A DNA stretch of 64,000 bases from an uncultured bacterium (GTDB taxonomy: Bacteria; DAOPZR01), in contig CAZFBR010000001.1 in NCBI GenBank assembly GCA_964517215.1, positions 24,907 to 88,906 on the forward strand, written 5' to 3'. Below the pieces are notes generated by a model. That model saw only the letters and a list, made by a program, of their open reading frames with translations. It ran no database searches and was not told the origin of the DNA. Positions 1-42,814 of the stretch are shown piece by piece. The number at the start of each line of letters is the position of its first letter. Positions within the stretch are counted from its first letter, which is position 1. A program made the translations under genes and the position numbers.

Positions 1-14
1 GGGCGGAGGCGGAA

Positions 15-356
15 GTGAAATTGTCCGCAGGATACCTGATTTCCGGGCTGGCGCTGGCGGCGTCGCTGCTGCCGGGATGCGTGATTGGCGATCTGTATAT
101 TGACGATCATGTGGCGGAGGGGATGACGTACGGCGCCATCGGCGGCGCGGCAGTCGGTGCCGCCGTGGCGGATGCCAACGGCACCAGCCGCTGGCAGGGG
201 GCAGCATACGGCGCCGGGGCCGGCGCGGTTGCCGGCGGTGTCGTTGGCAGTCAGGTGCCGGCCGACCAGCCGCCGCACACCGGTGCGGCCCGGTCGGTGG
301 TGCCGATCGAGCGCAGCGGCGGATCTGTGTCGCAGGTGCAGCCGACTATTCGCTGA
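15..356 (+). CDS. Gly/Ala-rich lipoprotein (glycine-zipper-like), signal peptide with lipobox LLPGC
   Basis: N-terminal hydrophobic signal ending in L-L-P-G-C; GxxxG/AxxxG-rich core (AIGGAAVGAAVA, GAGAGAVAGGVVG) typical of glycine-zipper outer-membrane lipoproteins. Confidence 0.45.
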   Translation: MKLSAGYLISGLALAASLLPGCVIGDLYIDDHVAEGMTYGAIGGAAVGAAVADANGTSRWQGAAYGAGAGAVAGGVVGSQVPADQPPHTGAARSVVPIERSGGSVSQVQPTIR

Positions 357-387
357 CTGTTGTTCTGACGGGCGCGCAAGCCGGCGC

Positions 388-1108
388 ACGATGCCGGAGC
401 GCGGGTCCGCAGTCAGGTTCATCCCGGAGAATGCCCAGAAGCGCGGCCATTCCCTGCCGGCGCTGGGATATTTGCGCTCCAGCGCGTTCGGCAATTCCAT
501 GCCGGGCAAGTTGCGCAGCCGGTCGCGTTCAAACCGGCGCCGCACGTTCTGCAGATGGCGCTCCCAGTCGGGCCGCAGCGATTCCGGCAGTACGGTCTGC
601 CGGTCCTTGTTCCCCTTGCCGGCGCGCATTGTGAGCACGCCGCGGTCGAAATCAACATCCGTGATGCGCAGCAACAGGCACTCCCGCAGTTGCAGTCCGC
701 ACCCGTAAATCATCCGTGCCATCAGCGCGGACATGCGGGGCATGCGCGTGGTTATCCTGCCGATTTCCGCATGCGTCAGCACCACCGGCAGTCGCCGCCG
801 CTCCGGTGCGCGCACTGGAACCGTTTAGGTCGGTTGGATTGCGGCCGAGGCAGTGGCACAGGAAGAACAGCAGGGCATTGAAGGCCTGGTTCTGGGTTTT
901 CGCAGACACCTGGCGTTCTCCTGCGATAAAAGACAGGTAATTGCGCACATCGGCGGAAGTCACTCCCTGCGGCGGCCGCTCATTGTGCCAGTGCCGGAAC
1001 TGCCGCAGGTAGGCGAGGCAGGTTCTCCGTCTGCGGCGACAACTGCCTGATGCGGATGATACGCCGCATTTCCGCGACGACGGCATCCCAGCGCAGCACA
1101 TCCGCCAT
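388..1108 (-). pseudogene. intI: Integron integrase (IntI-type tyrosine recombinase) remnant: at least two frameshifts, C-terminally truncated (ends after ...DPRSGIVRR; no HxxR/Tyr catalytic box)
   Basis: Reverse-strand translation in three frames gives an N-terminal segment (RRIIRIRQLSPQTE), a SAM-like core-binding segment (AYLRQFRHWHNERPPQGVTSADVRNYLSFIAGERQVSAKTQNQAFNALLFF), then a catalytic-domain segment (RLPVVLTHAEIGRI...LQLRECLLLRITDVDFDRGVLTMRAGKGNKDRQTVLPESLRPDWERHLQNV...LPNALERKYPSAGREWPRFWAFSGMNLTADPRSGIVRR). The ALERKYP...WPxFW block is the insertion specific to integron integrases. Confidence 0.7.
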
Positions 1109-1572
1109 CGACGGTACGGGGACCGATTCGGCGGCAGTGCGGTCTGCTGCCGGCGCGGAGGGCTGGCTGGCACGGTAATAGAGAAACAGGCGCACGGTTT
1201 CCCCCTGCCTGTTTTACCTGCCATGGTGCCTTGATGCGTCCAAGTTCATCAAGGAATTGCTGCAGTTCCTGCGGGGCGTTGCCGCTGGCGGCAGGGACGT
1301 GGCGATACCGCAGGAACAAGTCGATCCAGTATTGATAGAATCTCAACTTCTTGTCAGGAACATGGTGGACTGTGAGGTAATTACCTACTGCGGCTTGTTC
1401 ATCTGGTATCAGTGCTTGTCCCATAGTTATTCCCCTTTTTTGTGGATCAACCCTATACGGGTCTAATATACGGGCGCTGCATGATTTTCACCTCCGTTCA
1501 ATATTATCCTCCCACTGCCATAACATCCTTTCCAGCAAATAATAACAGTATCTATAACATTTCATTAACCTA

Positions 1573-1601
1573 TTGACATTCAACCCACCCAGTGGTACAA
1601 T
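1573..1601 (+). promoter_or_regulatory. Consensus sigma70-type promoter TTGACA-17bp-TACAAT (Pc-like cassette promoter candidate)
   Basis: TTGACA at 1573-1578, 17-nt spacer, TACAAT at 1596-1601; about 40-70 bp upstream of the first cassette ORF and divergent from the intI remnant. Confidence 0.5.
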
Positions 1602-1637
1602 CTAAAAATACGCTGTTATTCTACGGTTCTGTACAAT

Positions 1638-1964
1638 ATGAATGTTAGGCAGTGGATAGAGATAGTGATGACTGCGGATGAAAAGATGGAATGGCCAATT
1701 TGGAAATGCACAGCATTGACCGTCATGTTGTGTGGTGCTCCGGTCTTTGCGTCACCTTTGGGGTTCTCAATAATATCGGTTTTGATTTGGATGCTGCTGA
1801 TTATTATCTATGCCGGAATATTAAAAGTATTTGGTTCTAGTTTTGTGATAGAAGGCGCGATCATCGTACTTGTTATAGCGACTCTTGTTTTTGCGGGCGC
1901 GAAATATTTTACAAATAACCTTCAAGAACAACCCGCGCAACAAGAGATGACAAGCAATGCCTAA
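1638..1964 (+). CDS. Small integral membrane protein (3 predicted TM helices), integron-cassette-like; alternative start at 1668
   Basis: ORF in an AT-rich region; hydrophobic segments (LTVMLCGAPVFASPLGF, ISVLIWMLLIIIYAGIL, AIIVLVIATLVFAGA); its stop codon TAA lies inside the RYYYAAC box of the following attC-like repeat. Confidence 0.5.
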   Translation: MNVRQWIEIVMTADEKMEWPIWKCTALTVMLCGAPVFASPLGFSIISVLIWMLLIIIYAGILKVFGSSFVIEGAIIVLVIATLVFAGAKYFTNNLQEQPAQQEMTSNA

Positions 1965-2024
1965 CTTCGCGCCGCACCACGTTGGCGAAAGACGCGCCGA
2001 CGCGGTGAGCGCTATTCGTTGGCA
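1959..2024 (+). repeat. attC-like recombination site 1 (imperfect palindrome GCCTAAC...GTTGGCA)
   Basis: Begins GCCTAAC (RYYYAAC inverse core), ends GTTGGCA (core-like), internal imperfect dyad; about 80% identical in its ends to the second site at 2673-2736 (shared AACTTCGCG...GAGCGCT-N-TCGTTGGC). Confidence 0.5.
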
Positions 2025-2037
2025 TCCAAGAAATCAC

Positions 2038-2066
2038 TTGACATATAACGTTATACGGTATATAAT
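2038..2066 (+). promoter_or_regulatory. Consensus sigma70-type promoter TTGACA-17bp-TATAAT upstream of higB
   Basis: TTGACA 2038-2043, 17-nt spacer, TATAAT 2061-2066; ATG of higB at 2073. Confidence 0.55.
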
Positions 2067-2072
2067 GGAATT

Positions 2073-2360
2073 ATGATAGAGGATTTCCGGTGCAAAGAAA
2101 CCGAAAGGATCTTTCGGCGCGAGTATTCGCGGAAGTTGCCTGCTGGTATTCAGCGGGTTGCTTTGCGAAAATTACGAATGCTGAATCGGAGTTCGACCAT
2201 CGAAGACCTCCGCGTTCCTCCGGGGAACCGGTTAGAAGCCCTTTCCGGCAATCGGAAAGGCGAACACAGCATTCGAATAAATGATCAATGGCGTATTTGC
2301 TTTGTTTGGCGGAATGGTGACGCCCACGCCGTAGAGATCGTGGATTATCACAGGGGGTGA
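2073..2360 (+). CDS. higB: HigB-family toxin (RelE/ParE superfamily, plasmid maintenance system killer protein)
   Basis: 95 aa; LRVPPGNRLEALSGNRKGEHSIRINDQWRICFVWRNGDAHAVEIVDYH matches the HigB_toxin family signature; precedes the antitoxin with a 3-nt gap. Confidence 0.85.
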   Translation: MIEDFRCKETERIFRREYSRKLPAGIQRVALRKLRMLNRSSTIEDLRVPPGNRLEALSGNRKGEHSIRINDQWRICFVWRNGDAHAVEIVDYHRG

Positions 2361-2363
2361 ACT

Positions 2364-2660
2364 ATGAAAAAGATTCCGGTTGTACATCCAGGCGAGATAC
2401 TAAACGAGGAGTTTCTCAAGCCTCTGAACATCAGCCAAAACCAACTCGGCAAAGGACTCGGTGTATCCGCCCGAAGAATCAATGAAATCATCCACGGCAA
2501 ACGCGCCATCACAGCGGATACCGCACTAAGGCTATCTAGGTATTTTGGCAATTCCGCTAGTTTTTGGCTGGGTCTGCAAATGGACTACGAGCTCGATATG
2601 GCCGATGATGCCCTCGCCTCACGTATCAACAGGGAAGTCCAGCGCCTGAAGGTCGCATGA
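2364..2660 (+). CDS. higA: HigA-family antitoxin (XRE-type HTH)
   Basis: 98 aa; PGEILNEEFLKPLNISQNQLGKGLGVSARRINEIIHGKRAITADTALRLSRYFGNSASFWLGLQMDYEL is the canonical HigA HTH. Confidence 0.85.
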   Translation: MKKIPVVHPGEILNEEFLKPLNISQNQLGKGLGVSARRINEIIHGKRAITADTALRLSRYFGNSASFWLGLQMDYELDMADDALASRINREVQRLKVA

Positions 2661-2672
2661 CGACACAGCGGT

Positions 2673-2736
2673 GCCAACTTCGCGTTGCGGCGCTTCGCCG
2701 CTGGCGCGGATCAACGCAGAGCGCTCATCGTTGGCC
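2673..2736 (+). repeat. attC-like recombination site 2 (GCCAAC...GTTGGCC), paralog of site 1
   Basis: Starts 13 bp after the higA stop; GCCAACTTCGCG...GAGCGCTCATCGTTGGCC; dyad ends GCCAAC/GTTGGC. Confidence 0.5.
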
Positions 2737-2957
2737 GTATGAAGACGACAATTAGATTATGAGATAAAATGAAGAATTGATGAATTCGGAAATACGGGCA
2801 TTCTTACATCGTACGCGCGAGGCAAGTGGCTTCCGGACAAAAACGGAAAGGCGGAAATCGCCAGGTTGCGGCAGCATGCTCACTCGACCCTGCAAAAGAG
2901 TAAAAGGATAAACACAGTACCGCATCCCTTACGCACGGATCACAGAAAGCTCATCTG

Positions 2958-2986
2958 TTGACGCAATGTAAAAACTGTGATAAAAT
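2958..2986 (+). promoter_or_regulatory. Strong sigma70-type promoter TTGACG-17bp-TAAAAT upstream of tRNA-Cys
   Basis: TTGACG 2958-2963, 17-nt spacer, TAAAAT 2981-2986; tRNA starts at 3073. Confidence 0.45.
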
Positions 2987-3072
2987 CAATGATTGTACGG
3001 GTCGTGGTGTCGCTGCCCGGGCCGCTGGTCGGCCGGCGGGCGGCGGCGGTTTATCCCGCGACAGCGTAACGA

Positions 3073-3148
3073 GGCGGCGTAGCCAAGTGGCTAAGGCGAC
3101 GGTTTGCAAAACCGTTATTCACCGGTTCAACTCCGGTCGCCGCCTCCA
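3073..3148 (+). tRNA. tRNA-Cys (GCA), CCA encoded
   Basis: 76 nt; 7-bp acceptor stem GGCGGCG/CGCCGCC, anticodon stem ACGGT/ACCGT with loop TTGCAAA (anticodon GCA), T-arm ACCGG-TTCAACT-CCGGT. Confidence 0.85.
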
Positions 3149-3173
3149 TTTTTTGCAAGGAGTTTCCCAACTC

Positions 3174-3761
3174 ATGACTGACGAAGGCCGTCGCGTCTAT
3201 TCCAATAGCGAACGCGAAAAGATGGACCGCGGACAGAGTTTGATCCCGGATCTGGTGGAAAGCTTGTGGGTGGAGAAGCGCCGCCTGTATGCCCTGCGCG
3301 AGCTGCTGGTCAAGAACAACGTTGCCACCGCGCTGGAGCTGATCAATGACCTGCTGAAAATCAAGCAGGCGCGCGCGGACCGCAAACGGCCGCCGTTGTG
3401 GATGCAGTTTACCACCAGCGACGGCGTGCTGGTGGCGCGCGGCCAGACCACCGGCTACAATGAAAACGGGCTGGGGGCGCGAGTCGACTTTTTCTGGCAG
3501 GACAAGACCGCCTCCACCAAGGCCTCGGACCTGGCGGAACGGCCGGGCACGGTGGTGCTGTACTGCCCGCCCGGCGAATACTATCCGTACCCGCTGCCGG
3601 CAAAGCTGCTGCGGGTCGAGGCCTGCAATTCGCTGGAGCGCAAACAGGCGTTCGTTGCCATCGAGTTCACCCCGCCCATCATGAGCGACCTGCTTGAGGC
3701 GCTCACCGATTGGGCGGAGCAATGCGAGCGCTATCAGGCGCAGCAGCACGAAGGCAAGTAA
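3174..3761 (+). CDS. Hypothetical protein (196 aa) between two tRNA genes
   Basis: ATG at 3174 preceded by AAGGAG; the longer six-frame ORF from 2958 would overlap tRNA-Cys, so the internal start is used; no recognisable domain. Confidence 0.4.
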   Translation: MTDEGRRVYSNSEREKMDRGQSLIPDLVESLWVEKRRLYALRELLVKNNVATALELINDLLKIKQARADRKRPPLWMQFTTSDGVLVARGQTTGYNENGLGARVDFFWQDKTASTKASDLAERPGTVVLYCPPGEYYPYPLPAKLLRVEACNSLERKQAFVAIEFTPPIMSDLLEALTDWAEQCERYQAQQHEGK

Positions 3762-3775
3762 CCATGTCCACCCGC

Positions 3776-3851
3776 GGGCTCTTAGCTCAATGGTTAGAGC
3801 ATCGGACTCATAATCCGGCGGTTCTGGGTTCAAGTCCCGGAGGGCCCACCA
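3776..3851 (+). tRNA. tRNA with CAU anticodon (elongator Met or lysidine-type Ile2; not initiator), CCA encoded
   Basis: 76 nt; acceptor GGGCTCT/AGGGCCC, D-arm GCTC-AATGGTTA-GAGC, anticodon loop CTCATAA, T-loop TTCAAGT; the G1-C72 pair excludes initiator; resembles E. coli ileX-type more than metT. Confidence 0.8.
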
Positions 3852-4070
3852 CTTTCGCCAGTGCCGTCCGCCTGCTGTCGTTCGCCCTGGTGGCGGTGCT
3901 GCTCGCTGCCGTCGCCGTCGCGGTCAGCACCATGGTGCCGGAGAACGGCGTCCGCACCACCGCCTCGAAGTACGCTGTTTCCAAAGACGATACCCCCTAC
4001 GCCTGATCCCCCGCCGGGTTTGCGCTCCCTGCCGGCATAATGGTATTATCCCCACCGGAGGGCGTGTATT

Positions 4071-4832
4071 GTGGCGATGCTCGAAATGGCCGGGGTGTAT
4101 ACCACGCTGGAGCACAAGGAAGTGCTGCGCGGTGTCAGCTTTTCCGTCGCTGACGGCGAAACCCTGGTCATCATCGGCCGGAGCGGCACCGGCAAGAGCG
4201 TCATCCTCAAGCATCTCATCGGCCTGATGCATCCGGACCGCGGCGCCATTTTTGTCGGCGGGACCGATATTGCCGCCTTGCGCGGCCCGGCGCTGCGCAC
4301 CGCCTGCCGCCCGGTGGCGATGCTGTTCCAGAACGGCGCGCTGTTCGATTCGCTGCGGGTGTGGGAAAACGTCGGCTTTCACCTGCTCGAGAATCTTGAC
4401 CGCCCGGTGGCGGAGGTGCAGCGGGTGGTGCGCGAAAAGCTGGCGCTGGTCGACCTGCACGGCGTCGAGCAGCTCATGCCGGCGGAACTGTCGGGCGGCA
4501 TGCGCAAGCGGGTGGCGCTGGCGCGGACGCTGGCACTGGAACCGCGGGTGCTGCTGTGGGATGAACCGACGTCGGGGCTTGATCCGGTGACGTCGGACAT
4601 CATCAACCGGCTGATCGTGCGCACGCGCGAGCAGCTCGGCCTGACGTCGGTGGTCGTCACCCACGACATGACCAGCGCCTACCAGGTCGGGCAGCGGATC
4701 GCCATGCTGCATGCAGGACGCATTCACACCATCGGCACCCCGGACCGCATCCGCGCCACCACGGATCCGGTGGTGCGGCGGTTTATCACCGGCGATGCCA
4801 GCGATCTGGTCGCCGCCGGGAACGGGGAATAG
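4071..4832 (+). CDS. mlaF: ABC transporter ATP-binding protein, MlaF/Mce-type
   Basis: Walker A GRSGTGKS, signature LSGGMRKRVALARTL, Walker B LLWDEPTSGLD; directly followed by an MCE-domain protein. Confidence 0.8.
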   Translation: MAMLEMAGVYTTLEHKEVLRGVSFSVADGETLVIIGRSGTGKSVILKHLIGLMHPDRGAIFVGGTDIAALRGPALRTACRPVAMLFQNGALFDSLRVWENVGFHLLENLDRPVAEVQRVVREKLALVDLHGVEQLMPAELSGGMRKRVALARTLALEPRVLLWDEPTSGLDPVTSDIINRLIVRTREQLGLTSVVVTHDMTSAYQVGQRIAMLHAGRIHTIGTPDRIRATTDPVVRRFITGDASDLVAAGNGE

Positions 4833-4835
4833 GTC

Positions 4836-5924
4836 ATGGACGAACAGCACCAGTTGAAAGTCGGCATCACGGTGATCGTCGGGTTCATCCTGCTGGCCGC
4901 GATCATCTTCATGGTCAGTGATTTCCACCTGCTGACGCCGGGCTCGACCTTTTTCGTCACCTTCAACTTCGCCAACGGCCTCGCCGAGGGCGCCCCGGTC
5001 ATGGTCGCCGGCGTCGAGGTGGGAACGGTCGAGGCGATTGATTTTGTCACCGACAACCAGGGCAACACCCGGGTGCAGCTGACGGTGTGGGTCAACCGCC
5101 GCGCGCGGGTGTTCCGCAACTCCAAGGCCTTCATCAACACCCTCGGCCTGATGGGGGAGAAATACCTCGAAATCACCACCGGCGAAGGCGGGGAGCAGCC
5201 CATCCGCGAAGGGGATGTGCTGGCCGGCACGGACCCGATCCGCCAGGACGAGATCCTGTCGCGCGGGGCGGAACTGGTGCGCGAATTCCAGTCGTCGGTG
5301 GCGGCGGTGAACTCCATTCTCGGCGAGGCGGGCACCCGCGACGACATCCGCAACACCCTGCACAACATGAACAACATCTCGCGGCGGATCGACAGCATCA
5401 TCGAGAAGAACGAGGGGAGCATCAACACCTCGCTGGCCAACTTCGGCCAGGCGTCGACGCGCCTCAACAGCACGGTGCAGACCTTCGACCGCATGATCAC
5501 CGGCAACGAAAAGGGGCTGACCGAGTCGATCCAGAATTTTTCCACCGGGATCGGCGAACTGCGCCTGATGGTCAGCGAAAACCGCCCCGGCCTGACCCGC
5601 GCGGTGCAGGACTTCCAGACCTTCTCGGGCGACCTGGCGGCCCTCACCCACGGCAACCGCGCCACCCTCGGCACAACCATCACCAACGTCGGCGAGGCGA
5701 GCGGCAACCTCAAGGGGGTGCTGGAGAAGATGGATGCGGTGCTGACCCGGATCAACAGCACCCAGGGCACGCTGGGCATGCTGCTCAACGATGCGACGGT
5801 GGGGAACAACCTGCGCAAGTCGTCGCAGGACCTGCGCGAGATGATCGCCTACGTCAAGTACCGGCCCTGGCTGCTCTACCGCAGCAGCGACGAGCCGCTC
5901 CGATACGGCACGGAAGAGCCATGA
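4836..5924 (+). CDS. mlaD: MCE-domain protein (MlaD-like) with long C-terminal helical extension
   Basis: N-terminal TM helix plus MCE fold (FFVTFNFANGLAEGAPVMVAGVEVGTVEAIDF); 362 aa. Confidence 0.75.
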   Translation: MDEQHQLKVGITVIVGFILLAAIIFMVSDFHLLTPGSTFFVTFNFANGLAEGAPVMVAGVEVGTVEAIDFVTDNQGNTRVQLTVWVNRRARVFRNSKAFINTLGLMGEKYLEITTGEGGEQPIREGDVLAGTDPIRQDEILSRGAELVREFQSSVAAVNSILGEAGTRDDIRNTLHNMNNISRRIDSIIEKNEGSINTSLANFGQASTRLNSTVQTFDRMITGNEKGLTESIQNFSTGIGELRLMVSENRPGLTRAVQDFQTFSGDLAALTHGNRATLGTTITNVGEASGNLKGVLEKMDAVLTRINSTQGTLGMLLNDATVGNNLRKSSQDLREMIAYVKYRPWLLYRSSDEPLRYGTEEP

Positions 5925-8894: not shown

Positions 8895-9361
8895 GCATCG
8901 GTTTCGATGTTCATCGCTTCTGCACCGGCCGCCCGCTGCTGCTGGGCGGGGTCAAGGTCAACTACCCGCAGGGCCTCGCCGGCCACTCCGACGCTGATGT
9001 GCTGCTGCATGCGATCAGCGACGCCATTCTCGGCGCGGCCGGCCTCGGCGACATCGGCCAGCATTTTCCCGATACGGACCAGAAATGGAAGGACGCCGAT
9101 TCCGGCCTGCTGCTCAAGGTCGTGGTGGCCAAGGCGCATGCCGCCGGCTGGCAGGTGGGCAATATCGACGCCACCGTCATCTGCGAGGAGCCGAAAATCG
9201 CCCCGCTGCGCGAGGCCGTGTGCGCCCGGGTGGCGGAACTGGCCGGCATTGTTCCCGCCGCGGTCAATATCAAGGGCAAAACCACCGAGCACCTCGGGTT
9301 TCTCGGACGCTGCGAGGGCATCGCTGCGCAGGCTGTGGTGCTGCTCGAACGGCTGCCGTGA
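8870..9361 (+). CDS. ispF: 2-C-methyl-D-erythritol 2,4-cyclodiphosphate synthase
   Basis: GIGFDVHRF, GHSDADVLLHAISDAILGA, DIGQHFPDTDQKWKDADS motifs. Confidence 0.9.
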   Translation: MASASAHVGIGFDVHRFCTGRPLLLGGVKVNYPQGLAGHSDADVLLHAISDAILGAAGLGDIGQHFPDTDQKWKDADSGLLLKVVVAKAHAAGWQVGNIDATVICEEPKIAPLREAVCARVAELAGIVPAAVNIKGKTTEHLGFLGRCEGIAAQAVVLLERLP

Positions 9362-9912
9362 GCGCACGCACCGCCCCGGTGGTCCTGTTCGGGTTCATGG
9401 GCACCGGCAAAAGCGCGGTCGGCGAGATTCTCGCCCGCCGGCTGCAGCGGACGTATCTCGACAGTGATGCGGAGATCGAACGCGAAGCCGGCGCCGGCAT
9501 TCCCGTCATTTTCGCCCGTCAGGGCGAGGCGGGGTTTCGCCGGCTGGAAACGCAGGTCATCACCCGCCTGGCGGAAACCGAGAATGCCGTTATTGCCTGC
9601 GGCGGCGGTGCGGTGCTGCGCCCGGAAAACCTGGCGGCGCTGCGGCGGCACGGCAGCATTCATTTTGTGCTGACCGCGCAGGTCGACACCATCCTGGCGC
9701 GCACGGCCGGCAGCGACCGGCCGCTGCTGCAATGCCCGCCGGCGGAGCGGCGGCAGCGCGTCGAGGAACTGCTGGCCCGGCGCGCGGCGGCCTATGACGC
9801 GGCCGGACTCGCGGTACCCACTGACGGCATGACCGCGGATGAAGTGGCTGACGCCATTGTCCGTCTGCTCAATGGCGGCATGAGCGCCCAGGCGCTGCAT
9901 GCCACATCGTAG
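9358..9912 (+). CDS. aroK: Shikimate kinase
   Basis: GTG start overlapping the ispF stop; Walker [12 protein letters not shown], shikimate-kinase fold. Confidence 0.8.
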
Positions 9913-14156: not shown

Positions 14157-14504
14157 ATGGACATCACACGTGAGGAAAAGGACGGCGTGGTCATCCTGCG
14201 CTTGAATGAGGATGTGCTGGTCGAGAACTTTCAGGAGCTCAAGACCGTTCTGGAAGAGCTCATCACGCGGGAGAACGACCGCATCGTCATCGACATGCAT
14301 CGCATCCAGTATTTCTGCAGCCAGGGCCTGGGCACCATCACCTCGTCGCTGAAGATCATCCGCGAACGGGGCGGTGATATCAAGATCCTGAACCCGGCCG
14401 GCCGCATCCTCAAGCTGTTCGAGCTGACCCGGCTCAACAAGATCCTTGACATTCTGCAGGAAGAAAAAGACCTGAAGGAGCGCTTCCAGCTCCCCACGCC
14501 ATGA
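14157..14504 (+). CDS. STAS-domain anti-sigma-factor antagonist (SpoIIAA/RsbV-like)
   Basis: 115 aa; VVILRLNEDVLVENFQELKTVLEEL...IVIDMHRIQYFCSQGLGTITSS (conserved Ser in the DxxxxxxDSxGL context); RBS GAAGGAGGG. Confidence 0.8.
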   Translation: MDITREEKDGVVILRLNEDVLVENFQELKTVLEELITRENDRIVIDMHRIQYFCSQGLGTITSSLKIIRERGGDIKILNPAGRILKLFELTRLNKILDILQEEKDLKERFQLPTP

Positions 14505-15355
14505 CCACGACCCCCGCGGGCGACGCCCCGGGGCAGATGCCGGGCAACCTCACCACCCGCTGCCTGGTCTTTCAGCATGCCGCCCTGCCGCCCGCCCTGC
14601 TGCCGCTGTTGCGCGCCGGCGGTGTGCGGGAAATCGAAATCATCACCGCCCAGCAGATCGCCACCATCACCCAGCCGCAGATGGCCGATTTCATCGCGGT
14701 TGTCGACGAGAATGACGAGCAGCTGTCCGTGCAGGCCGAACGCCTGCGCCAGAACACGCAGTGGAAGCTGCTCCCGTGGCTGGTCTTCGGCGCGGAAACC
14801 GAGTATACCCGCCGGGTGGCGGTGCTGCGCCGCGGCTTCTGGGAATACCTGCAGTTCGACGATGAGGAGCGCACCCGCAAGAAGATCGGGCTGACCATCG
14901 ACTTCTACCGCAACTGCCGGATCAGCCGCCACATGGAGGGGTGGGTTTCCTTCCAGTTCAAGAGCGAATACAGTTTCGTGCGCGAAGTGAATTTTTTCAT
15001 TTCCCGGCTGCAGTACATGACCACGCTGACCCAGGCGGAAATCGAGGACATCCAGTACGCCTTTCTCGAAATCGGCAACAATGCCGTCGAGCACGGGAAC
15101 ACCGGCAACCCGGAAAAGCTGGTCGACATCAGCTACCTCATTTTCGAGGACAAGCTCATCATCCGGGTCGCCGACGAGGGGCAGGGCTTTGACGTCAGCA
15201 AGATCCGCAACCCGCTCGACGACGACCGCATCGAGCATGCGCGCGGGCGCGGCATATTTCTGGTCAAGCAGATGATGGACGAGGTTGACTTCAACGACAA
15301 GGGCAATGTCTGTCTCATGACCAAACGCTTCGCCCCGCTGCCCGCCACCGCCTGA
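14501..15355 (+). CDS. Anti-sigma regulatory factor-type Ser/Thr kinase (HATPase_c, RsbW/SpoIIAB-like) fused to an N-terminal degenerate receiver-like domain
   Basis: C-terminal FLEIGNNAVEHGN (N-box), IIRVADEGQGFD (G1), GRGIFLVKQMMDEVDF (G2); N-terminal ~140 aa has an alternating beta/alpha pattern (CLVFQHAA, EIEIITA, FIAVVDEN, LPWLVFGAE) but lacks the conserved acidic pocket; 4-nt overlap with the STAS gene. Confidence 0.7.
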   Translation: MTTTPAGDAPGQMPGNLTTRCLVFQHAALPPALLPLLRAGGVREIEIITAQQIATITQPQMADFIAVVDENDEQLSVQAERLRQNTQWKLLPWLVFGAETEYTRRVAVLRRGFWEYLQFDDEERTRKKIGLTIDFYRNCRISRHMEGWVSFQFKSEYSFVREVNFFISRLQYMTTLTQAEIEDIQYAFLEIGNNAVEHGNTGNPEKLVDISYLIFEDKLIIRVADEGQGFDVSKIRNPLDDDRIEHARGRGIFLVKQMMDEVDFNDKGNVCLMTKRFAPLPATA

Positions 15356-15383: not shown

Positions 15384-17150
15384 ATGACTGTTGAACTGCT
15401 ATCCGGCAACGAAGCCCTTGCCCGCGGCGCCTACGAGGCGGGCGTCACCGCGGCCTTCGGCTACCCCGGCACTCCGTCGACGGAGATCCTGGAATATGTC
15501 GCCGCGCATTTCCGCGACGCCATCTATGGCGAATGGTCGCCCAACGAGAAGGTCGCCTTCGAGGCGGCCGCGGGCGCCGCCTACACCGGCGCGCGCACCC
15601 TCTGCACCATGAAACATGTCGGGCTCAATGTCGCGGCCGATCCGCTGATGACCATGGCCTATACCGGGACGGTGGGCGGCTTCGTCGCCATCGTCGCCGA
15701 CGATCCGGGCATGCACAGCTCGCAGAACGAACAGGACACGCGCCGCTACGCGGCGTTTGCGCGCATTCCCTGCTTCGAGCCGGCCGACAGCCAGGATGCC
15801 GCCGACGTCATGCGCGCCGCCTATGCCGTCAGCGAGCAGCACCGCACTCCGGTTATCGTCCGCACCACGACGCGCGTCAGCCATTCCCGTTCGCGGGTCG
15901 TCCTGCGCGACCGCGAACCGGCGCCGCTGCCGGTCGGGTTTGTCAAGGATCCGGCGCGGTTCGTGCCCATTCCGCTGTGGGCGCGCCCGATGCGCGTGCG
16001 GGTCGAGGAGCGCTATGCCGCCCTGCGCACGGCGGCGGAACAGTCGCCGCTCAACCGCATCGAATGGCGCGACCGGAAACTGGGGATCATTGCCCCGGGC
16101 ATCGCCTACCAGTACGTGCGCGAGGTCTTTCCGGAGTATTCCACGCTCAAACTCGGCTTTACCCATCCCTATCCCGACGCGCTGCTGCGTGAGTTCGCCG
16201 CCGGCTGCGCCGAAGTGCTGGTGGTGGAGGAACTGGATCCGCTGGTCGAGGAACACTGCCGGGTGCTCGGCCTGGCGGTGCGCGGCCGCGACCTGGTGTC
16301 GGGCATCGGCGAGCTGTCGCCGCTCCGCCTGCGCGAAGTGCGCGCCCGCTGGGAAGGAGCGGCATTCGCCGCCCCGCAACCCATCGCCGCGGCGGCGGAT
16401 CTGCCGGGCCGGCCGCCGGTGCTGTGCCCCGGCTGCCCGCATCGCGGGGTGTTTGCCGCGCTGGCCCAGCATGACGTCGTGGTTACCGGCGATATCGGCT
16501 GCTATTCGCTCGGCGTGCTGCCGCCGCTGGCGCGCATGGACACCATCCTGTGCATGGGCGGCGGCGTGTCGCTGGCGCACGGCATGGACAAGGCGGGCGA
16601 ACCGAAGCCGGTGGTCGGCATTGTCGGTGACTCAACCTTCTTTCATTCCGGCATCACCGGCCTGCTGAATATCGCCTACAACCGCGGCAAGGCGACGATC
16701 ATTGTCGTCGACAACCGGACCACGGGCATGACCGGCCACCAGGATAATCCCGGCACCGGCCGGACGCTGCTGGGTGAACCGAGTCCGGCGGTGCGGATCG
16801 AGGACGTGGCCCGGGCCTGCGGCATTCGCCGGGTGGTCACCCTCAACCCGTACGACCTGACCGCCACCAGCCGCATCCTCGCGGAGGAATTGGCGGCAGA
16901 CGAGCCGTCGCTGCTGGTCTCGGTCGCCCCCTGCGTGCTCAAGGTGCGCCAGCGGGTCGGTCCCGTGCGCACCGTTGCCGCCGCTGCCTGCAAAAAGTGC
17001 CGGGCCTGCCTGAAGATCGGCTGCCCCGCCATTGAAAGCGCCGACGCCGGCCAGCCGCCGCGCATCAATCCGGAATTGTGCAACGGCTGCGGGCTCTGCG
17101 CGAAGGTCTGCAGATTTTCCGCCATCATTGAAACGGAGGTGCGCTCATGA
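15384..17150 (+). CDS. iorA: Indolepyruvate ferredoxin oxidoreductase alpha subunit
   Basis: TPP-binding and pyrimidine-binding domains (GYPGTPSTEILE, GCPHRGVF) plus C-terminal 2x[4Fe-4S] motifs CKKCRAC...CNGCGLCAKVC. Confidence 0.9.
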   Translation: MTVELLSGNEALARGAYEAGVTAAFGYPGTPSTEILEYVAAHFRDAIYGEWSPNEKVAFEAAAGAAYTGARTLCTMKHVGLNVAADPLMTMAYTGTVGGFVAIVADDPGMHSSQNEQDTRRYAAFARIPCFEPADSQDAADVMRAAYAVSEQHRTPVIVRTTTRVSHSRSRVVLRDREPAPLPVGFVKDPARFVPIPLWARPMRVRVEERYAALRTAAEQSPLNRIEWRDRKLGIIAPGIAYQYVREVFPEYSTLKLGFTHPYPDALLREFAAGCAEVLVVEELDPLVEEHCRVLGLAVRGRDLVSGIGELSPLRLREVRARWEGAAFAAPQPIAAAADLPGRPPVLCPGCPHRGVFAALAQHDVVVTGDIGCYSLGVLPPLARMDTILCMGGGVSLAHGMDKAGEPKPVVGIVGDSTFFHSGITGLLNIAYNRGKATIIVVDNRTTGMTGHQDNPGTGRTLLGEPSPAVRIEDVARACGIRRVVTLNPYDLTATSRILAEELAADEPSLLVSVAPCVLKVRQRVGPVRTVAAAACKKCRACLKIGCPAIESADAGQPPRINPELCNGCGLCAKVCRFSAIIETEVRS

Positions 17151-17728
17151 CCGCCACCACCAGTGTTGTGCTCGCCGGCGTCGGCGGGCAGGGCATCCTG
17201 CTGGCCGGCACCATCATCGCCCGGGCCGCGCTCAGCGCCGGGTTCGATGCGAAAACCAACGAAGTGCACGGCATGGCCCAGCGGGGCGGGTCGGTGATCG
17301 CCCAGGTCCGCTTCGGGCATGCCGTGAACAGTCCGCTCGTCGAGGAAGGCACCGCCAGCGTGCTGGGCTCGCTGGAGCTGATCGAGGCGCTGCGCTTTGC
17401 GCATTACCTCGCGCCGGACGGGCTGGCGGTTGTTTCCACCCAGCGCATCATTCCCGTCACGGTCTCCTCGGGCAAGGCCGCCTATCCCGCCGATGCCGAG
17501 GCGCGGGTGCGGGCCGCCTTTCCCCGGCTGGTTCTGGTGGATGCCATCGCCGAAGCGCATGCCCTGGAGGATGTGCGCACGGCCAATGTCATTCTGCTGG
17601 GCGCCATGGCCGGCGGGCTGGCGATCCCCGCCGACGCCTGGCGCGAGGCGATTACCGCCAGCGTCAAGCCGCAATTTGTCGAGCGCAATCTGCGCGCCTT
17701 CGCCCGCGGCCAGGCCCTGTGCCGGTGA
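17147..17728 (+). CDS. iorB: Indolepyruvate ferredoxin oxidoreductase beta subunit
   Basis: VLAGVGGQGILLAGTIIARA...MAQRGGSV (pyruvate-ferredoxin oxidoreductase gamma-like fold); ATGA overlap with iorA. Confidence 0.9.
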   Translation: MTATTSVVLAGVGGQGILLAGTIIARAALSAGFDAKTNEVHGMAQRGGSVIAQVRFGHAVNSPLVEEGTASVLGSLELIEALRFAHYLAPDGLAVVSTQRIIPVTVSSGKAAYPADAEARVRAAFPRLVLVDAIAEAHALEDVRTANVILLGAMAGGLAIPADAWREAITASVKPQFVERNLRAFARGQALCR

Positions 17729-17730
17729 GC

Positions 17731-19002
17731 ATGTTCAACCCCGCCGCGGAAACGCTTCCGGCGGAGGCCCTGCAGGCGCGGCAGCTGGAACTGCTGCGCG
17801 CGCTGGTGGCGCGCGCCCGGGCCGGCAATCCGCTGCACCGGGCGCGGCTGGCGGATATTGCGGTGAGCGATTTGCGCACGACCGACGATATCGTCCGGCT
17901 GCCGTTCATGGACAAGGAACTGTTCCGCACGTCCTATCCGGTGCAGCTGGCCCTGACCCCCGCCGCGTCGTTTGTCGAAATGCACATGTCCTCGGGGTCC
18001 ACCGGCACGCCGGTGGTCATGCCCTACACGCGTGCCGACCTGGCGCAGTGGGCGGAATGCATGGCGCGCTGTTTCATTATGGCCGGGGCCCGGCCGGGTG
18101 ATCCCGTGCAGATTACCCCGTCATTCGGGCTGTTCAACGGCGGGTTCGGTTTTTATCACGGCGCGCGTGCGGCCGGGCTGTTCATCATTCCCACCGGCGC
18201 GGGCAACACCCAGCGCCAGCTCCGGCTGGCCCGTGACTTCCACACCCGCGTGCTGACGGGGGTGGTCTCGTACGGCCTGCGCTGCCTCGAGGTGCTCGAA
18301 GAGACGGGCGGACGACTGCCCGACCTGCAGATCGGCATGTTTGGCGCCGAAACCTTCTCCGAGGCGCTGAAGGAAAAGTTCCGCACCGCCTTCGGCCTCG
18401 AGGTCTTTGACATCTACGGCATGACGGAAACCGGCGGCGTCGGCACCCTGGGCATGGACTGTCCCGCGCACGACGGCATCCACCTGTGGGAGGATCACTA
18501 TCTCGCGGAAATCATCGATCCGGCGACCGGCAACCGGGTTCCTGACGGCACCGCGGGCGAACTGGTGGTCACGTCGCTGACCCGTGAGGCGCTCCCGGTG
18601 ATCCGGTTCCGCACCGGCGACTGCACCCGCATCGTCAGCCGCGCGCGCTGCGCCTGCGGGCGCACCCACCTGCGCCTCGCCCCGGTCACCGGCCGGGTCG
18701 ACGACATGCTCATCATCAAGGGGGTCAATTTCTTTCCCCGCCAGGTCGAACAGGCGCTGATGGCCATTCCCGGGGTGGGGAACAACTGGCAGATCATTAT
18801 CGAGGAGAACTGCGGGGTCAGGGATGTGCGCGTCAATGTCGAAGCCGCCCCGGCAGTCACCGGCTATCTGGTGGAAAAAGCGCTGAAGGAAGCGCTCGGC
18901 TTCTCGCCCAAGGGGGATGTGTTCCCGCTGGGCGCCCTGCCCCGCCAGGAAGGCAAGGCCCAGCGCGTGTTCCACCGCCAGCCCGACGGCTCGCTGCGCT
19001 GA
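17731..19002 (+). CDS. paaK: Phenylacetate-CoA ligase family (aryl-CoA ligase, PaaK-like) paralog 1
   Basis: HMSSGSTGTPVV (P-loop), YGMTETGGVG, RFRTGD, DMLIIKGVNFFP motifs; internal ATG chosen because the upstream extension overlaps iorA. Confidence 0.85.
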   Translation: MFNPAAETLPAEALQARQLELLRALVARARAGNPLHRARLADIAVSDLRTTDDIVRLPFMDKELFRTSYPVQLALTPAASFVEMHMSSGSTGTPVVMPYTRADLAQWAECMARCFIMAGARPGDPVQITPSFGLFNGGFGFYHGARAAGLFIIPTGAGNTQRQLRLARDFHTRVLTGVVSYGLRCLEVLEETGGRLPDLQIGMFGAETFSEALKEKFRTAFGLEVFDIYGMTETGGVGTLGMDCPAHDGIHLWEDHYLAEIIDPATGNRVPDGTAGELVVTSLTREALPVIRFRTGDCTRIVSRARCACGRTHLRLAPVTGRVDDMLIIKGVNFFPRQVEQALMAIPGVGNNWQIIIEENCGVRDVRVNVEAAPAVTGYLVEKALKEALGFSPKGDVFPLGALPRQEGKAQRVFHRQPDGSLR

Positions 19003-19011: not shown

Positions 19012-20157
19012 GTGCTCGCATATCTCGGTTTTTTCGCCATCTATGTCCTGGGGTACGGCGGCCTGCAGTATTGCTGCTGGCGCAAACTGCGGCATCTCGT
19101 CCGGGGCCGGCGGCAGCGCGTGCTGTTCATGGCGTGGTTCATCCTGCAGCTTGCCCTGCCCATCCTCACCCGTGTCGCCGAACGCAGCGACTGGCTGCTG
19201 ACCGCACGGCTGCTGGCCTGGCCCGGCTACCTGTGGATGGGATACAGCTTTCTGCTGTTGGTGTTCGCGATGCTGATCGACCTGCCGGCAGGACTGCTCG
19301 TTCTCCTGCGCCGCCGCCGCCCGGACGCGGTTCCGCCGCCGGGAACCCCGCGCATCTTCAAACTGACCGGTCCTGTCGCCGCCGTGCTGGCGCTGCTGGT
19401 CACCCTGTACGGCGCGTATGCCGCGCGCCAGATGGTGATCGAACAGCATACCCTCACCACCGGCAAACTGCCGGCCGCCCTGCCCCGCCTGCGCATCGTC
19501 CAGATCTCCGACCTGCATATCGGGATCATGACCGACCCCGCCCGGCTGACCGACATTGTCGCGCAGGTGCGCGCGCTGCAGCCGGATCTGCTCGTCGCCA
19601 CCGGCGACGTGGTCGACGGGACGATGGCGCCGCATCAGGCCGGCGCGGCCGCCTTTGCCGCACTGCAGCCGCGTTACGGGAAATTTGCCGTGACCGGCAA
19701 CCATGAGTTTTATGCCGGCCTGGCCCAGGCCCTCACCTGGCTGAACGACGCCGGGTTCCAGGTGCTGCGCGGGGAATCATCCAATTACCACCGGGTTATC
19801 AACCTTGCCGGCGTCGACGATTACGCGACGAACGGCGAATTGCCGCGCGCGGTCGATGAACGCGAACTGCTGGCCACGCTGCCGCGCGACCAGTTCACCC
19901 TGCTGCTCCGCCATCGTCCGGACGTTCCGGCCAATACCGTTGGCCTGTTTGATTTGCAGTTGTCCGGCCATACCCATCGCGGCCAGATCTTTCCCTTCAC
20001 CGGCGTGGTCTGGCTGGCAACCGGCCATACCTCCGGCTGGTATGAAGCAGGGAACAATTCGCGCTTGTATGTCAGCCGCGGCCTCGGCACCTGGGGCCCG
20101 CCGCTGCGCGTGTTCTCCCCGCCGGAGATTACGGTGTTTGATCTCGTGCGCGGATAG
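19012..20157 (+). CDS. Membrane-anchored calcineurin-like metallophosphoesterase (YkuE-like)
   Basis: N-terminal TM helices; ISDLHIG, ATGDVVDG, VTGNHEF, GHTHRGQ metallophosphatase motifs. Confidence 0.75.
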   Translation: MLAYLGFFAIYVLGYGGLQYCCWRKLRHLVRGRRQRVLFMAWFILQLALPILTRVAERSDWLLTARLLAWPGYLWMGYSFLLLVFAMLIDLPAGLLVLLRRRRPDAVPPPGTPRIFKLTGPVAAVLALLVTLYGAYAARQMVIEQHTLTTGKLPAALPRLRIVQISDLHIGIMTDPARLTDIVAQVRALQPDLLVATGDVVDGTMAPHQAGAAAFAALQPRYGKFAVTGNHEFYAGLAQALTWLNDAGFQVLRGESSNYHRVINLAGVDDYATNGELPRAVDERELLATLPRDQFTLLLRHRPDVPANTVGLFDLQLSGHTHRGQIFPFTGVVWLATGHTSGWYEAGNNSRLYVSRGLGTWGPPLRVFSPPEITVFDLVRG

Positions 20158-39169: not shown

Positions 39170-39221
39170 AAAACGCCGGACCGCGTTGCGGTCCGGCGCG
39201 AATGTGCGGCGGGGTGGCGGG

Positions 39222-39659
39222 CTACAGGGCGTAGACCTGCTCAGCGGTCAGCACGGGAATGCTGGCCGCCGCCAATGCCTTGACGCCCGCGGCAATATTC
39301 TCCGTGCGCATGACCACCACCGCATGCTTGGCGGACTTTTCCACGAACGCGTAGATGTATTCGACATTGATCCCGGCAGTGCTCATCGCGCGCAGCACCG
39401 CCGCCAGCCCGCCCGGCCGGTCGCTCACCAGCACGGCGATAACCTCGGTTTCCTTGACGGTGAACCGCGCCTTTTCCAGCACCTGCTTGGCCCGGTCCGG
39501 TTCCGGCACAATCAGCCGCAGGATGCCGAAATCAGCGGTATCGGCGATTGATAACGCGCGGATATTGATCCCCGCCGCGCCCAGCGTCTCCACCGCCTCG
39601 AGCAGCCGTCCCTGCTTGTTCTCCAGAAAGATCGAGATCTGCTTGACTTTCATGATCAT
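39222..39659 (-). CDS. ACT-domain protein (tandem ACT), partner of the aryl-CoA ligase
   Basis: ISIFLENKQGRL...GINIRALSI and IAVLVSDRPGGLAAVLRAMSTAGINVEY ACT signatures. Confidence 0.7.
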   Translation of the reverse strand: MIMKVKQISIFLENKQGRLLEAVETLGAAGINIRALSIADTADFGILRLIVPEPDRAKQVLEKARFTVKETEVIAVLVSDRPGGLAAVLRAMSTAGINVEYIYAFVEKSAKHAVVVMRTENIAAGVKALAAASIPVLTAEQVYAL

Positions 39660-39668
39660 TCCTTTCCC

Positions 39669-40988
39669 CTACAGGTTCCGCTGATCGATGACGCGCACGG
39701 CCTTGCCTTCGCTGCGCGGCAGCGACTTCGGCTCGACCAGAGCCACCTTCACCCGCAGGCCGACGGCCTGCTCGATATGCCGCTCCACCTTGCGTTTGAA
39801 CTCCTCGACATGGCGGACCTCGTCGGAGAAGAAGCCCCTGCTCGCCTCGACCCGCACTTCGACCTCATCCAGCCCGCCGGCCGGGCGCGAGACGATGATC
39901 TGGTAGATCGGCTCCAGACCCTTGATCTCGAAGAGCGCGCGCTCGATCTGCGACGGGAAGAGAATGACCCCGCGGATCTTGAGCATGTCGTCCGACCGGC
40001 CGGTGATGCGGCTCATGCGCACCAGGGTGCGTCCGCAGGCGCAGGTCCCCCGCTCGAGCGAGGTCAGGTCGCGCGTGCGGAAACGCAGCATGGGCATCCC
40101 CTCGCGGGTGAGTGTGGTCAGCACCAGCTCGCCCACGGCGCCGTCGGGAAGCGGCTCGAGGGTTTCGGGCGACACCACCTCGGGAAAGAACAGGTCCTCG
40201 GCAATGTGCAGCCCGCACTTGGCGGGGCATTCCTGCGCCACGCCCGGTCCGATGACCTCGGTCAACCCGTAGATGTTGAGCGCCTGCAGCGGATAGCGCT
40301 TCTCGATCTCCGCACGCATGTGCTCCGTCCACATTTCCGCGCCGAACAGCCCGGCCTTGAGTTTCGTTTTGTGCAGGTCGATTCCCGCCTCGGCGGCGAG
40401 CTCGGCCAGGTGCAGCATGTAGGAGGGCGTGCCGGTGATGATTGTGCTGCCGAAATCCTGCAGGATGGTGAGCTGGCGCTTGCTGTTCCCTGCGGAGATC
40501 GGCACCAGCATGGCGCCGATGCGGTGTGCCCCGTAATGCACGCCCAGTCCGCCGGTGAACAGCCCGTAGCCGTAGCAGTTCTGCACGATATCCTCGGGCG
40601 TGGCCCCGGCCATGGTCATGGCGCGGGCCATCGCCTCGCCCCACAGCCTGATGTCACCGGCGGTATACCCGCTCACCACCGGCTTGCCGGTCGTGCCCGA
40701 CGAGGTGTGGATCTCGACAATCTCGCGGCGCGGGACAGCGAACATGCCGAAGGGATAGCCCGCGCGCAGTTCCGGCTTGCCGATGCACGGCAGCCGGCGG
40801 ATGTCGTCGAGCGTGCGGATATCCTCCGGCCTGACCTTCGCCGCCTTGAACGCCTGGCGGTAATACGGCACGCGCGCATAGGCGTGCGCGACCGTCGCCT
40901 TCAGCCGGCGCAACTGCAGCGCGCGGCGCTTCGCCGCCGGCATGCACTCCGCCGCGCGGTCCCAGATGAGGTATTTTTTCCGTGCCAT
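39669..40988 (-). CDS. paaK: Phenylacetate-CoA ligase family paralog 2
   Basis: RBS AAGGAG; [40 protein letters not shown]. Confidence 0.85.
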
Positions 40989-40998
40989 GATCGGCTCC

Positions 40999-41418
40999 TT
41001 AGTTCCCGTCGTACATGGTGAGGCCGGCCCCGGCCAGCTTGCGGCGCGCCGCCGCGATATCATCGGTCTCGACGACAAAATAGGCGATGGCCCGCTCCTG
41101 CGGAATCAGCACGTAGGCATTGTCGATATTGACCGCCTGCTGCTGCAGCGCGTCGGCCACGGCATGCAGTCCGCCCGGCCGGTCGCTGATGGCGATCGCC
41201 AGCACCTCGGTCACCGCCACGGTGAACCCCGCCTGCTCGAATGCGGTGGTGGCGCGGTCGGTATCGTCGACGATGAACTTGATCACCCCGAACTTGCCGC
41301 TGCTGGCGATGTTCAGCGCGAGGATGTTGACCTTTTCCTGCGCCAGCACCCGGCAGATATTCTCCAGCTTGCCCGGCTGGTTCTTGGCGAACACCGAAAT
41401 CTGGCGTAATGCGCCCAT
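40999..41418 (-). CDS. ACT-domain protein (tandem ACT)
   Basis: [31 protein letters not shown] and [24 protein letters not shown]. Confidence 0.7.
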
Positions 41419-41427
41419 GGCTTCCTC

Positions 41428-42708: not shown

Positions 42709-42814
42709 GATCCGCCTCGGTACAATTATGATGGCCGTATTGTAGCCCTTTTTGTCCGCACTGGCAACTTTTGCCGTCTTGCCCAACAGCAGCGACTGAG
42801 CTACAATAAACCGC

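Follow-up and report, generated by a model that had tools for sequence, protein, structure and literature searches.

PaaK-family aryl-CoA ligases, paired ACT-domain proteins and indolepyruvate:ferredoxin oxidoreductase in a candidate aromatic-acid salvage system of an uncultured bacterium

Anoxic sediments, digesters, the rumen and the gut are rich in phenylacetate, 4-hydroxyphenylacetate and indole-3-acetate; in the gut these acids matter to the host, for example because they give rise to phenylacetylglutamine and include indole signals. Indolepyruvate:ferredoxin oxidoreductase (IOR) interconverts arylpyruvates and arylacetyl-coenzyme A (CoA) esters, and AMP-forming ligases favour the formation of such esters from the free acids. 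We analysed a 64,000-nucleotide (nt) stretch of DNA from an uncultured bacterium (contig CAZFBR010000001.1; the whole stretch is referred to as the window), in which two loci encode IOR (iorA and iorB), three aryl-CoA ligases of the phenylacetate-CoA ligase (PaaK) family (paaK1, paaK2 and paaK3) and two small proteins composed of paired ACT domains (ACTa and ACTb). Both the aryl-acid pathway and the linkage of IOR to a ligase have been described before; the pairing of ligase and ACT genes, which extends across anaerobic bacteria and methanogens, appears to be unstudied. A search of open-access full texts returned no report of a partnership between ACT proteins and PaaK, and no assigned function was found for the ACT-pair family.

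The three window ligases are 40-49% identical to PDB entry 4R1L, which we take to be the ligase of B. thetaiotaomicron. They also share family and fold with the aerobic paa-pathway enzymes PaaK1 and PaaK2 (2Y27, 2Y4N and 2Y4O, presumably the Burkholderia cenocepacia enzymes); however, the window lacks the paaABCDE ring-oxygenase context, and its ligases have ACT partners and a Cys/His motif. ACTa and ACTb resemble the beta subunit of aspartokinase (2DTJ, 3AAW) and the small subunit of acetohydroxyacid synthase (AHAS; 2F1F, 2PC6) in that all are small two-ACT polypeptides encoded beside a catalytic partner, but in the window the catalytic partner would be a CoA ligase of the adenylate-forming type, with gene context as the basis for proposing that the two bind. 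To our knowledge, no enzyme of the ANL superfamily has been shown to use a separate ACT subunit.

In Bacteroides, as in the window, IOR is linked to a PaaK-family ligase. A 2026 study tested this IOR-colocalised, AMP-forming enzyme for arylacetate-CoA ligase activity, with phenyl-, hydroxyphenyl- and indole-acetate as substrates, and on that basis proposed that it serves anabolism, like its methanogen counterpart (PMC13285125); it is the nearest enzyme to have been assayed. That system has one ligase where the window has three, and ACT partners such as the two in the window are not discussed in PMC13285125. The aryl-acid pathway of M. maripaludis and M. thermautotrophicus is hosted by archaea, whereas the window is bacterial; its proposed chemistry is the one considered here, in which an arylacetate is converted to its CoA ester, reductively carboxylated by IOR and transaminated, and no activating ligase or ACT partner is known to have been identified for it. 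The same intermediates (arylpyruvate, arylacetyl-CoA and arylacetate) occur in the clostridial route composed of the HpdDEFG oxidoreductase, the HpdJ phosphotransacylase and the HpdK kinase (PMC13285125), but that route runs in the opposite direction, yields ATP through the phosphotransacylase and kinase, and has neither an AMP-forming ligase nor an ACT partner.

The ACT genes of the window each lie directly downstream of a ligase gene. On the minus strand, paaK3 (41428-42708; 426 amino acids [aa]) is followed by ACTa (40999-41418; 139 aa), and paaK2 (39669-40988; 439 aa) is followed by ACTb (39222-39653; 143 aa). Both ACT products are stand-alone proteins of approximately 140 aa with two tandem ACT domains, and both matched the Pfam family PF19571 (ACT_8) well above its gathering score of 23.5 bits (ACTa, 57 bits, E = 2.3e-15; ACTb, 97.8 bits, E = 6.1e-28), while sharing 39% identity with each other. 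PDB entry 2F06 was matched over the full length of both proteins (3.5e-16 for ACTa and 6.7e-29 for ACTb), and ACTb additionally gave weak matches to the aspartokinase and AHAS subunits. In database annotation, the proteins are labelled 'ACT domain-containing protein'. The family is large, with 5332 clusters (at 50% identity) at E<=1e-3 and 2213 at E<=1e-10.

To place the ACT genes in a wider context, an ACT alignment was scanned over one genome per GTDB species, which gave at least 577 relatives; the best 80 loci were used. These came from Bacillota (36), Methanobacteriaceae and related archaea (20), Nitrospirota (7), Verrucomicrobiota/Kiritimatiellae (4), Actinomycetota (3) and several candidate phyla. 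Cultured carriers of the cluster include Methanobacterium oryzae (L024), Carboxydothermus islandicus (L059), Desulfofundulus thermosubterraneus (L035) and Heliophilum fasciatum (L082). An earlier note on this DNA, made from the sequence alone, had set beforehand a lack of co-conservation between the ACT genes and paaK in relatives as one outcome that would refute its proposal. A paaK gene was located directly upstream and on the same strand in 74 of the 80 ACT-seeded loci, and the ACT gene was located downstream of the ligase in all six independent contexts that were seeded with paaK2. The alignment split the ACT proteins into two orthologous types, designated A and B after ACTa and ACTb, and the pairing followed these types: orthologues of ACTb were preceded by ligases of one phylogenetic clade (clade 2, which contains paaK2), and type-A orthologues came after ligases of another (clade 3, which contains paaK3) in 13 loci. 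PaaK proteins that were encoded at the same loci without an ACT gene all fell outside clade 2. The ACTb orthologues were 53-72% identical across bacterial phyla and Methanobacteriaceae. The pairing of ligase with ACT protein is strong, specific to clades and common to both domains, and the proposal was therefore not refuted on this point.

The exceptions among the 80 loci were of three kinds. In four Pelotomaculum-like loci (L027, L042, L051 and L069; Pelotomaculum/Desulfotomaculaceae), a type-B ACT gene followed an unrelated 472-aa gene downstream of tsaD (approximately positions 5430-7430 in L027). The product of this gene has a radical-SAM-like 'SxCN' N-terminus and may represent another type of partner for the ACT protein. 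One further ACT gene lay ahead of mraZ, and another directly preceded iorA and iorB. In this last locus (L071, 6980-11515), the ACT-iorA-iorB order, with no ligase between ACT and IOR, was followed by an open reading frame (ORF) with an aminotransferase-like N-terminal sequence; this order links ACT directly to IOR and possibly to transamination.

The remaining genes, iorA-iorB-paaK1, form the first locus of the window, on the plus strand at 15384-19002, and the four-gene operon paaK3-ACTa-paaK2-ACTb lies approximately 20 kb away, running from 42708 to 39222 on the minus strand. The earlier note had assigned all seven genes to 15384-19002; this position is correct for the first operon only, the second being at 39222-42708. 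The gene identities that it gave were borne out by Pfam and NCBIfam, in which all seven genes exist with the domains described. iorA (15384-17150; 588 aa), encoding the alpha subunit, carries the POR_N and TPP_enzyme_C domains and a C-terminal 4Fe-4S domain (Fer4), and its score against the NCBIfam model TIGR03336 (IOR_alpha), 693.4 bits, exceeded the equivalog cut-off of 650.9. iorB (17147-17728; 193 aa), encoding the beta subunit, contains a POR domain (PF01558, 5.6e-38); its best NCBIfam score was 210.3 bits against a cut-off of 230, and its top 12 matches were all IOR-beta equivalogs. paaK1 (17731-19002; 423 aa) encodes the third ligase, with AMP-binding and AMP-binding_C_2 domains.

On comparative evidence, the two loci belong together. 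A metagenomic contig (L113) carried, on one strand, a paaK2-type gene, ACTb, a paaK3-type gene, ACTa, iorA, iorB and a paaK1-type gene, followed by a DctPQM TRAP transporter. The genes ran in another order in Nitrospirota, Omnitrophota and Chloroflexota: transporter, iorB, paaK3-type gene, ACTa, paaK2-type gene and ACTb, with a convergent iorA after them. Three uncultured bacteria (L043, L062 and L064) had iorA-iorB upstream of a paaK2-type gene, ACTb, a paaK3-type gene and ACTa. Orthologues of paaK1 with 66-72% identity came after iorA-iorB in L092 and L113 and after iorB in L094, and in a Sedimentisphaerales genome a paaK1-type gene was found after iorA-iorB and ahead of a TRAP transporter. 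In Methanobacteriaceae, the paaK2-ACTb pair (ligase identity, 56-68%) was located beside iorBA in five loci. When all neighbouring ORFs in 84 loci were clustered without bias, the four most frequent families were PaaK, ACT, IorB and IorA; after them came housekeeping genes common to closely related Methanobacteriaceae and an SSF transporter. IOR was the only other broadly recurrent neighbour of the ligase-ACT pairs, and it was present within the same 14-kb locus in 22 of the 80 ACT-seeded loci.

Uptake systems flanked the cluster in several relatives and varied with the lineage (L005/L006, L007, L009, L114, L092 and L113). Some lineages had SSF symporters, accompanied by a small 'Symport_access' gene and by an outer-membrane protein of the Alginate_exp type; others had Liv-type ABC systems or the TRAP transporter DctPQM. 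In the window, a transporter gene is next to neither locus. We also considered the genes as an aerobic paa or anaerobic pad cluster and rejected this assignment: the genes around the ligases, here and at the related loci, are IOR, ACT, transporters and unrelated housekeeping genes, and no paaABCDE or pad-type genes were found among them.

All three ligases scored above the gathering thresholds of PF00501 (AMP-binding) and PF14535 (the PaaK-type C-terminal domain), and the best NCBIfam models for each were the two PaaK equivalogs. Their pairwise identities, measured by BLASTP, were 41%, 43% and 45%, so that the 45-50% estimated in the earlier note was slightly high. Scores against the PaaK model TIGR02155 were 337, 434 and 532 bits for paaK1, paaK3 and paaK2, respectively, compared with 118, 177 and 151 bits against the coenzyme F390 synthetase model TIGR03335, whose cut-off is 458.7. 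An identity as F390 synthetases, which that note had named as a possible refutation, was rejected because each ligase scored far below its own PaaK score, and its placement of the ligases in the arylacetate family was upheld. The three are best described as members of the PaaK family, and not as certified equivalogs or orthologues of the aerobic PaaK. The closest solved structures were the phenylacetate-CoA ligases 2Y27, 2Y4O and 4R1L. For paaK2, the best matches were 2Y4O and 2Y27 (1e-120 to 1e-121; 47-48% identity), which makes it the nearest of the three to the true phenylacetate-CoA ligases; for paaK1, the best solved match was 4R1L (3e-88).

A neighbour-joining tree of 102 PaaK sequences (the window proteins, those of the fetched loci and four PDB sequences), rooted on 2-hydroxyisobutyryl-CoA synthetase, placed the window ligases in three clades. 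Clade 1 (bootstrap, 100) joined paaK1 to relatives of 66-72% identity, which came from Planctomycetota-type contigs and from Methanothrix. Clade 2 contained paaK2 and every ligase with a type-B ACT gene downstream (75 sequences) and was exclusive in 100 of 100 bootstraps, with the 2Y27/2Y4O pair as its nearest outgroup in the full-data tree. Clade 3, with paaK3 and the ligases that precede a type-A ACT gene, was pure in 98 of 100 bootstraps; the full-data tree put 4R1L inside it, as did 56 of the 100 bootstraps.

The clades also differed in their predicted aryl pockets. We compared the positions that we take to line the pocket of the 2Y27 enzyme, namely Y136, F141, A147, A214, I236 and P245; the 2Y27 sequence does carry these residues. 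Against Y-F-A-A-I-P in 2Y27, clade 2 has Y-F-V-A-I-P (as in paaK2, with five of six residues as in 2Y27), clade 3 has M-F-(M/L)-A-(C/S)-P (M-F-L-A-C-P in paaK3, three of six) and clade 1 has P-F-(F/M)-A-I-V (P-F-F-A-I-V in paaK1, three of six). The residues were conserved inside each clade and different between clades, which fits what separate substrate specificities would look like; the suggestion in the earlier note that the three paralogs differ in specificity is consistent with these well-supported clades. The pocket of paaK2 points to phenylacetate and makes this ligase the best phenylacetate candidate of the three, while the pattern is silent on which paralog takes hydroxyphenylacetate or indoleacetate. 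A Cys...Gly-x-His...Cys-x-Cys-Gly-Arg-Thr pattern (approximately positions 250-260 and 310-316 of 2Y27) is common to the three window ligases and 4R1L; the 2Y27 and 2Y4O ligases lack its His and CxC. This pattern could be a structural metal site, perhaps for zinc, that is specific to enzymes of the anaerobe type.

On balance, we somewhat favour the view that the two loci are parts of an aromatic-acid salvage system that serves the synthesis of aromatic amino acids. In such a system, the AMP-forming and clade-distinct PaaK1, PaaK2 and PaaK3 would activate arylacetates, most likely phenylacetate, 4-hydroxyphenylacetate and indole-3-acetate, with ATP and CoA. IorAB would use reduced ferredoxin and CO2 for the reductive carboxylation of the arylacetyl-CoAs to arylpyruvates, and aminotransferases would convert these to Phe, Tyr and Trp. 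Each ACT-pair protein would be a dedicated partner that binds its own ligase together with a small effector, in the simplest case the amino acid produced, and would throttle the ATP-consuming first step when that amino acid is plentiful. The sequences show which genes are present, how the operons are built, that the ligases fall into three clades with different pockets, and that clade-specific ligase-ACT pairs are linked to IOR; we infer the direction of flux, the individual substrates, the binding of ACT protein to ligase and the ACT ligand. Salvage is the favoured direction because the pair occurs in hydrogenotrophic Methanobacteriaceae, five times beside iorBA, because uptake-type transporters (SSF, TRAP and Liv-type) recur beside the cluster, and because in L071 an ORF that is aminotransferase-like in its N-terminal sequence follows iorAB. 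Published work on methanogens is in line with this direction: passages of PMC4162585, citing Porat 2004, give aryl acids as a second source of aromatic amino acids via IOR in M. maripaludis, and passages of PMC13285125, citing Tersteegen 1997, propose that methanogen IOR works anabolically. The earlier note implied a direction in which IOR produces arylacetyl-CoAs on the way to arylacetates; this direction is probably reversed, in view of the preference of the ligases, the occurrence in methanogens and the flanking uptake transporters.

The role of the ACT-pair proteins is proposed more cautiously. By analogy with the two-ACT subunits of other enzymes, they may be small-molecule-sensing regulatory subunits of the ligases, a tentative reading that we regard as quite possible. 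A still more tentative extension is that these proteins of the 2F06 family are allosteric subunits, of which types A and B recognise different aromatic amino acids or aryl acids and gate their own ligases. If so, an ancient aryl-acid salvage route common to anaerobic bacteria and methanogens would be under end-product control, these ligases would be the first known ANL (adenylate-forming) enzymes under a separate ACT subunit, and a family of more than 2000 clusters would gain a function. A kit of three ligases, two ACT proteins and IOR would explain how many anaerobes regain aryl acids as amino acids and how they save ATP when amino acids are plentiful. The pairing, although not surprising in principle, offers a clean and testable pointer to the function of an ACT family that is large and conserved and has a solved structure; if the ACT proteins are irrelevant to the ligases, what is left is the ordinary annotation of a pathway already known.

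Several observations weigh against regulated salvage as set out above. All three ligases scored below the 646.3-bit equivalog cut-off of TIGR02155, and the assignment of aryl acids to paralogs has the pocket comparison as its sole basis. The structural relative 2F06 was deposited as a 'conserved hypothetical protein'. Six of the 80 ACT loci lacked an upstream paaK gene, so an ACT protein can exist without a ligase; conversely, the IOR-linked paaK1 has no ACT partner, as is also the case for some clade-3 ligases (L007 and L065), and a ligase can therefore work without any ACT protein. No PaaK-ACT fusion was present in the top 120 word-indexed matches or among the best 150 cluster representatives (101-293 aa). 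The window also encodes a shikimate kinase domain (residues 105-262 of ORF 9085-9912), a sign that this genome possesses the de novo aromatic pathway at least in part; salvage would therefore be supplementary, neither essential nor a replacement for de novo synthesis. Finally, Bacteroides IOR is reported, in work cited in passages of PMC13285125, to contribute to phenylacetate production, and oxidative flux is thus possible in vivo.

That last observation belongs to a catabolic or fermentative scheme, in essence the direction of the earlier note, which we consider unlikely. Here, aromatic amino acids would be transaminated, IorAB would oxidise the arylpyruvates to arylacetyl-CoAs with reduction of ferredoxin, and the PaaK-type ligases would operate backwards (acyl-CoA + AMP + PPi to acid + CoA + ATP) to conserve energy or release the acids, with ACT as a switch responding to amino-acid supply. 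An AMP-forming acyl-CoA synthetase reportedly runs in reverse in Syntrophus aciditrophicus, and sensing of a substrate amino acid by ACT is as plausible as sensing of a product. Moreover, IOR is oxidative in peptide-fermenting archaea and adds to phenylacetate formation in Bacteroides, according to passages of PMC13285125. However, the known fermentative routes use a phosphotransacylase and kinase or ADP-forming synthetases and not AMP-forming ligases (PMC13285125), and the release of CoA alone needs no three separate ligases. Hydrogenotrophic Methanobacteriaceae, which are not amino-acid fermenters, commonly carry the orthologous paaK-ACT pair, whether iorBA is adjacent or not (20 of the 80 loci), and the transporters beside the clusters (TRAP, SSF and a Liv-type binding protein) are of the uptake type. 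The same distribution in methanogens argues against a role in anaerobic aromatic-acid degradation, in which phenylacetate-type acids would pass through phenylglyoxylate to benzoyl-CoA as in Thauera/Aromatoleum and IOR would be only accessory. In denitrifiers, PaaK-family ligases do catalyse the opening reaction in the anaerobic breakdown of phenylacetate and indoleacetate, and the phenylacetate-type pocket of paaK2 would suit such a pathway. Nevertheless, no genes for phenylacetyl-CoA:acceptor oxidoreductase, phenylglyoxylate oxidoreductase or benzoyl-CoA reductase were found next to either window locus or the related loci, and IOR was the sole recurrent partner; degradation is therefore highly improbable.

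A more serious alternative concerns the ACT proteins themselves, which could be free-standing small-molecule binders, such as regulators of IOR or of transporters, or buffers or carriers of aryl acids, with their adjacency to paaK reflecting only a shared operon. The ACT genes without an adjacent ligase, one of them directly before iorA-iorB, favour this explanation, as do the lack of fusions among the matches inspected and the ligases that need no ACT. On the other hand, the pairing is specific to clades, the order of ligase then ACT is fixed within a few nt, and the translation signals are coupled; furthermore, most pairs have no IOR or transporter in the same 14-kb locus. Although it must be taken seriously, we regard this explanation as rather doubtful, and we retain the ligase-subunit role of the ACT proteins within the salvage system as our working proposal.

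In both operons, stop and start codons overlap or are close to each other, and every junction has a Shine-Dalgarno sequence. In the second, a promoter-like site (TTGCCA-17 nt-TACAAT; 42739-42767, minus strand), which agrees with the consensus at 10 of 12 positions and is identified by this consensus match only, and an intrinsic-terminator-like hairpin (39173-39199, minus strand; a 12-bp stem with 10 G-C pairs, followed by a T tail), located 23 nt past the ACTb stop codon, bracket all four genes. Each downstream start codon is 9-15 nt past the preceding stop codon, with a GGAGG-type Shine-Dalgarno sequence that overlaps or abuts that stop: ACTa starts 9 nt past the stop codon of paaK3, which GGAGG overlaps, and AAGGAG overlaps the ACTa stop codon ahead of paaK2. 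The ORF called on the source contig for paaK3 (41428-42816; 462 aa) is over-extended, because the promoter-like elements and the short start are conserved in an 80%-identical relative (L004), which retains the -35 element and most of the -10 element. The start at 42708 is backed by a Shine-Dalgarno sequence, by the position of the promoter-like site inside the long ORF and by the short start of the L004 orthologue. Database proteins identical to paaK2, ACTb and paaK1 were found for each of these three.

In the first locus, AAGGAG precedes the start codon of iorA, and the stop codon of iorA overlaps the start codon of iorB as ATGA, by which iorB is translationally coupled to iorA. The ATG of paaK1 is 2 nt past the iorB stop codon, and the longer ORF at 17032-19002 overstates this gene. 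An Rfam search at the gathering threshold gave only two tRNAs in the window, with no riboswitch or leader RNA ahead of either operon. A STAS-domain gene and an RsbW/SpoIIAB-like HATPase_c_2 gene (14157-15355) end 28 nt ahead of iorA, and a gene for a membrane-anchored metallophosphoesterase (19012-20157) starts 9 nt past paaK1. No terminator-like site was seen between iorAB-paaK1 and these neighbours on either side, and the STAS/kinase and metallophosphoesterase genes may be co-transcribed with iorAB-paaK1. They were rejected as parts of the system since they are not conserved in the relatives L092, L094 and L113.

A radical SAM gene (42815-43741, plus strand; 308 aa, with a CTLDCVYC motif) is divergent from paaK3, and the two have a 106-bp promoter region in common. 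Its product gave a weak C-terminal winged-helix-like match (HVO_A0261_N) and matched no specific NCBIfam family and no solved relative. The gene adjoins the operon in the window and in L004, where the outer flanks differ, and it was absent from all 80 ACT-seeded loci. The DNA retrieved around 16 metagenomic relatives of the radical SAM protein (38-60% identity), which for nine of them included approximately 5 kb of upstream flank, contained no PaaK, ACT or IOR gene. With its adjacency limited to one close relative, the gene was rejected as a member of the system, and the suggestion of the earlier note that it may belong to the same regulon is not supported.

Elsewhere in the window, the G+C content is 0.57-0.58 in the first 4000 nt (positions 1-4000) and 0.65-0.71 in the remainder. 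This first part contains tRNA-Cys (3073-3148) and tRNA-Met (3776-3851); the former is located inside a 267-aa ORF (2958-3761) that matched nothing in Pfam and is unlikely to be a true gene. A cluster typical of Gram-positive bacteria, encoding an McsA-like protein (UVR), McsB (ATP:guanido phosphotransferase) and ClpC and followed by a MurT/GatD-like pair, is located at 50925-57203, although MlaD and ABC genes (4071-5924) also occur in the window, whose G+C content is 65-70%.

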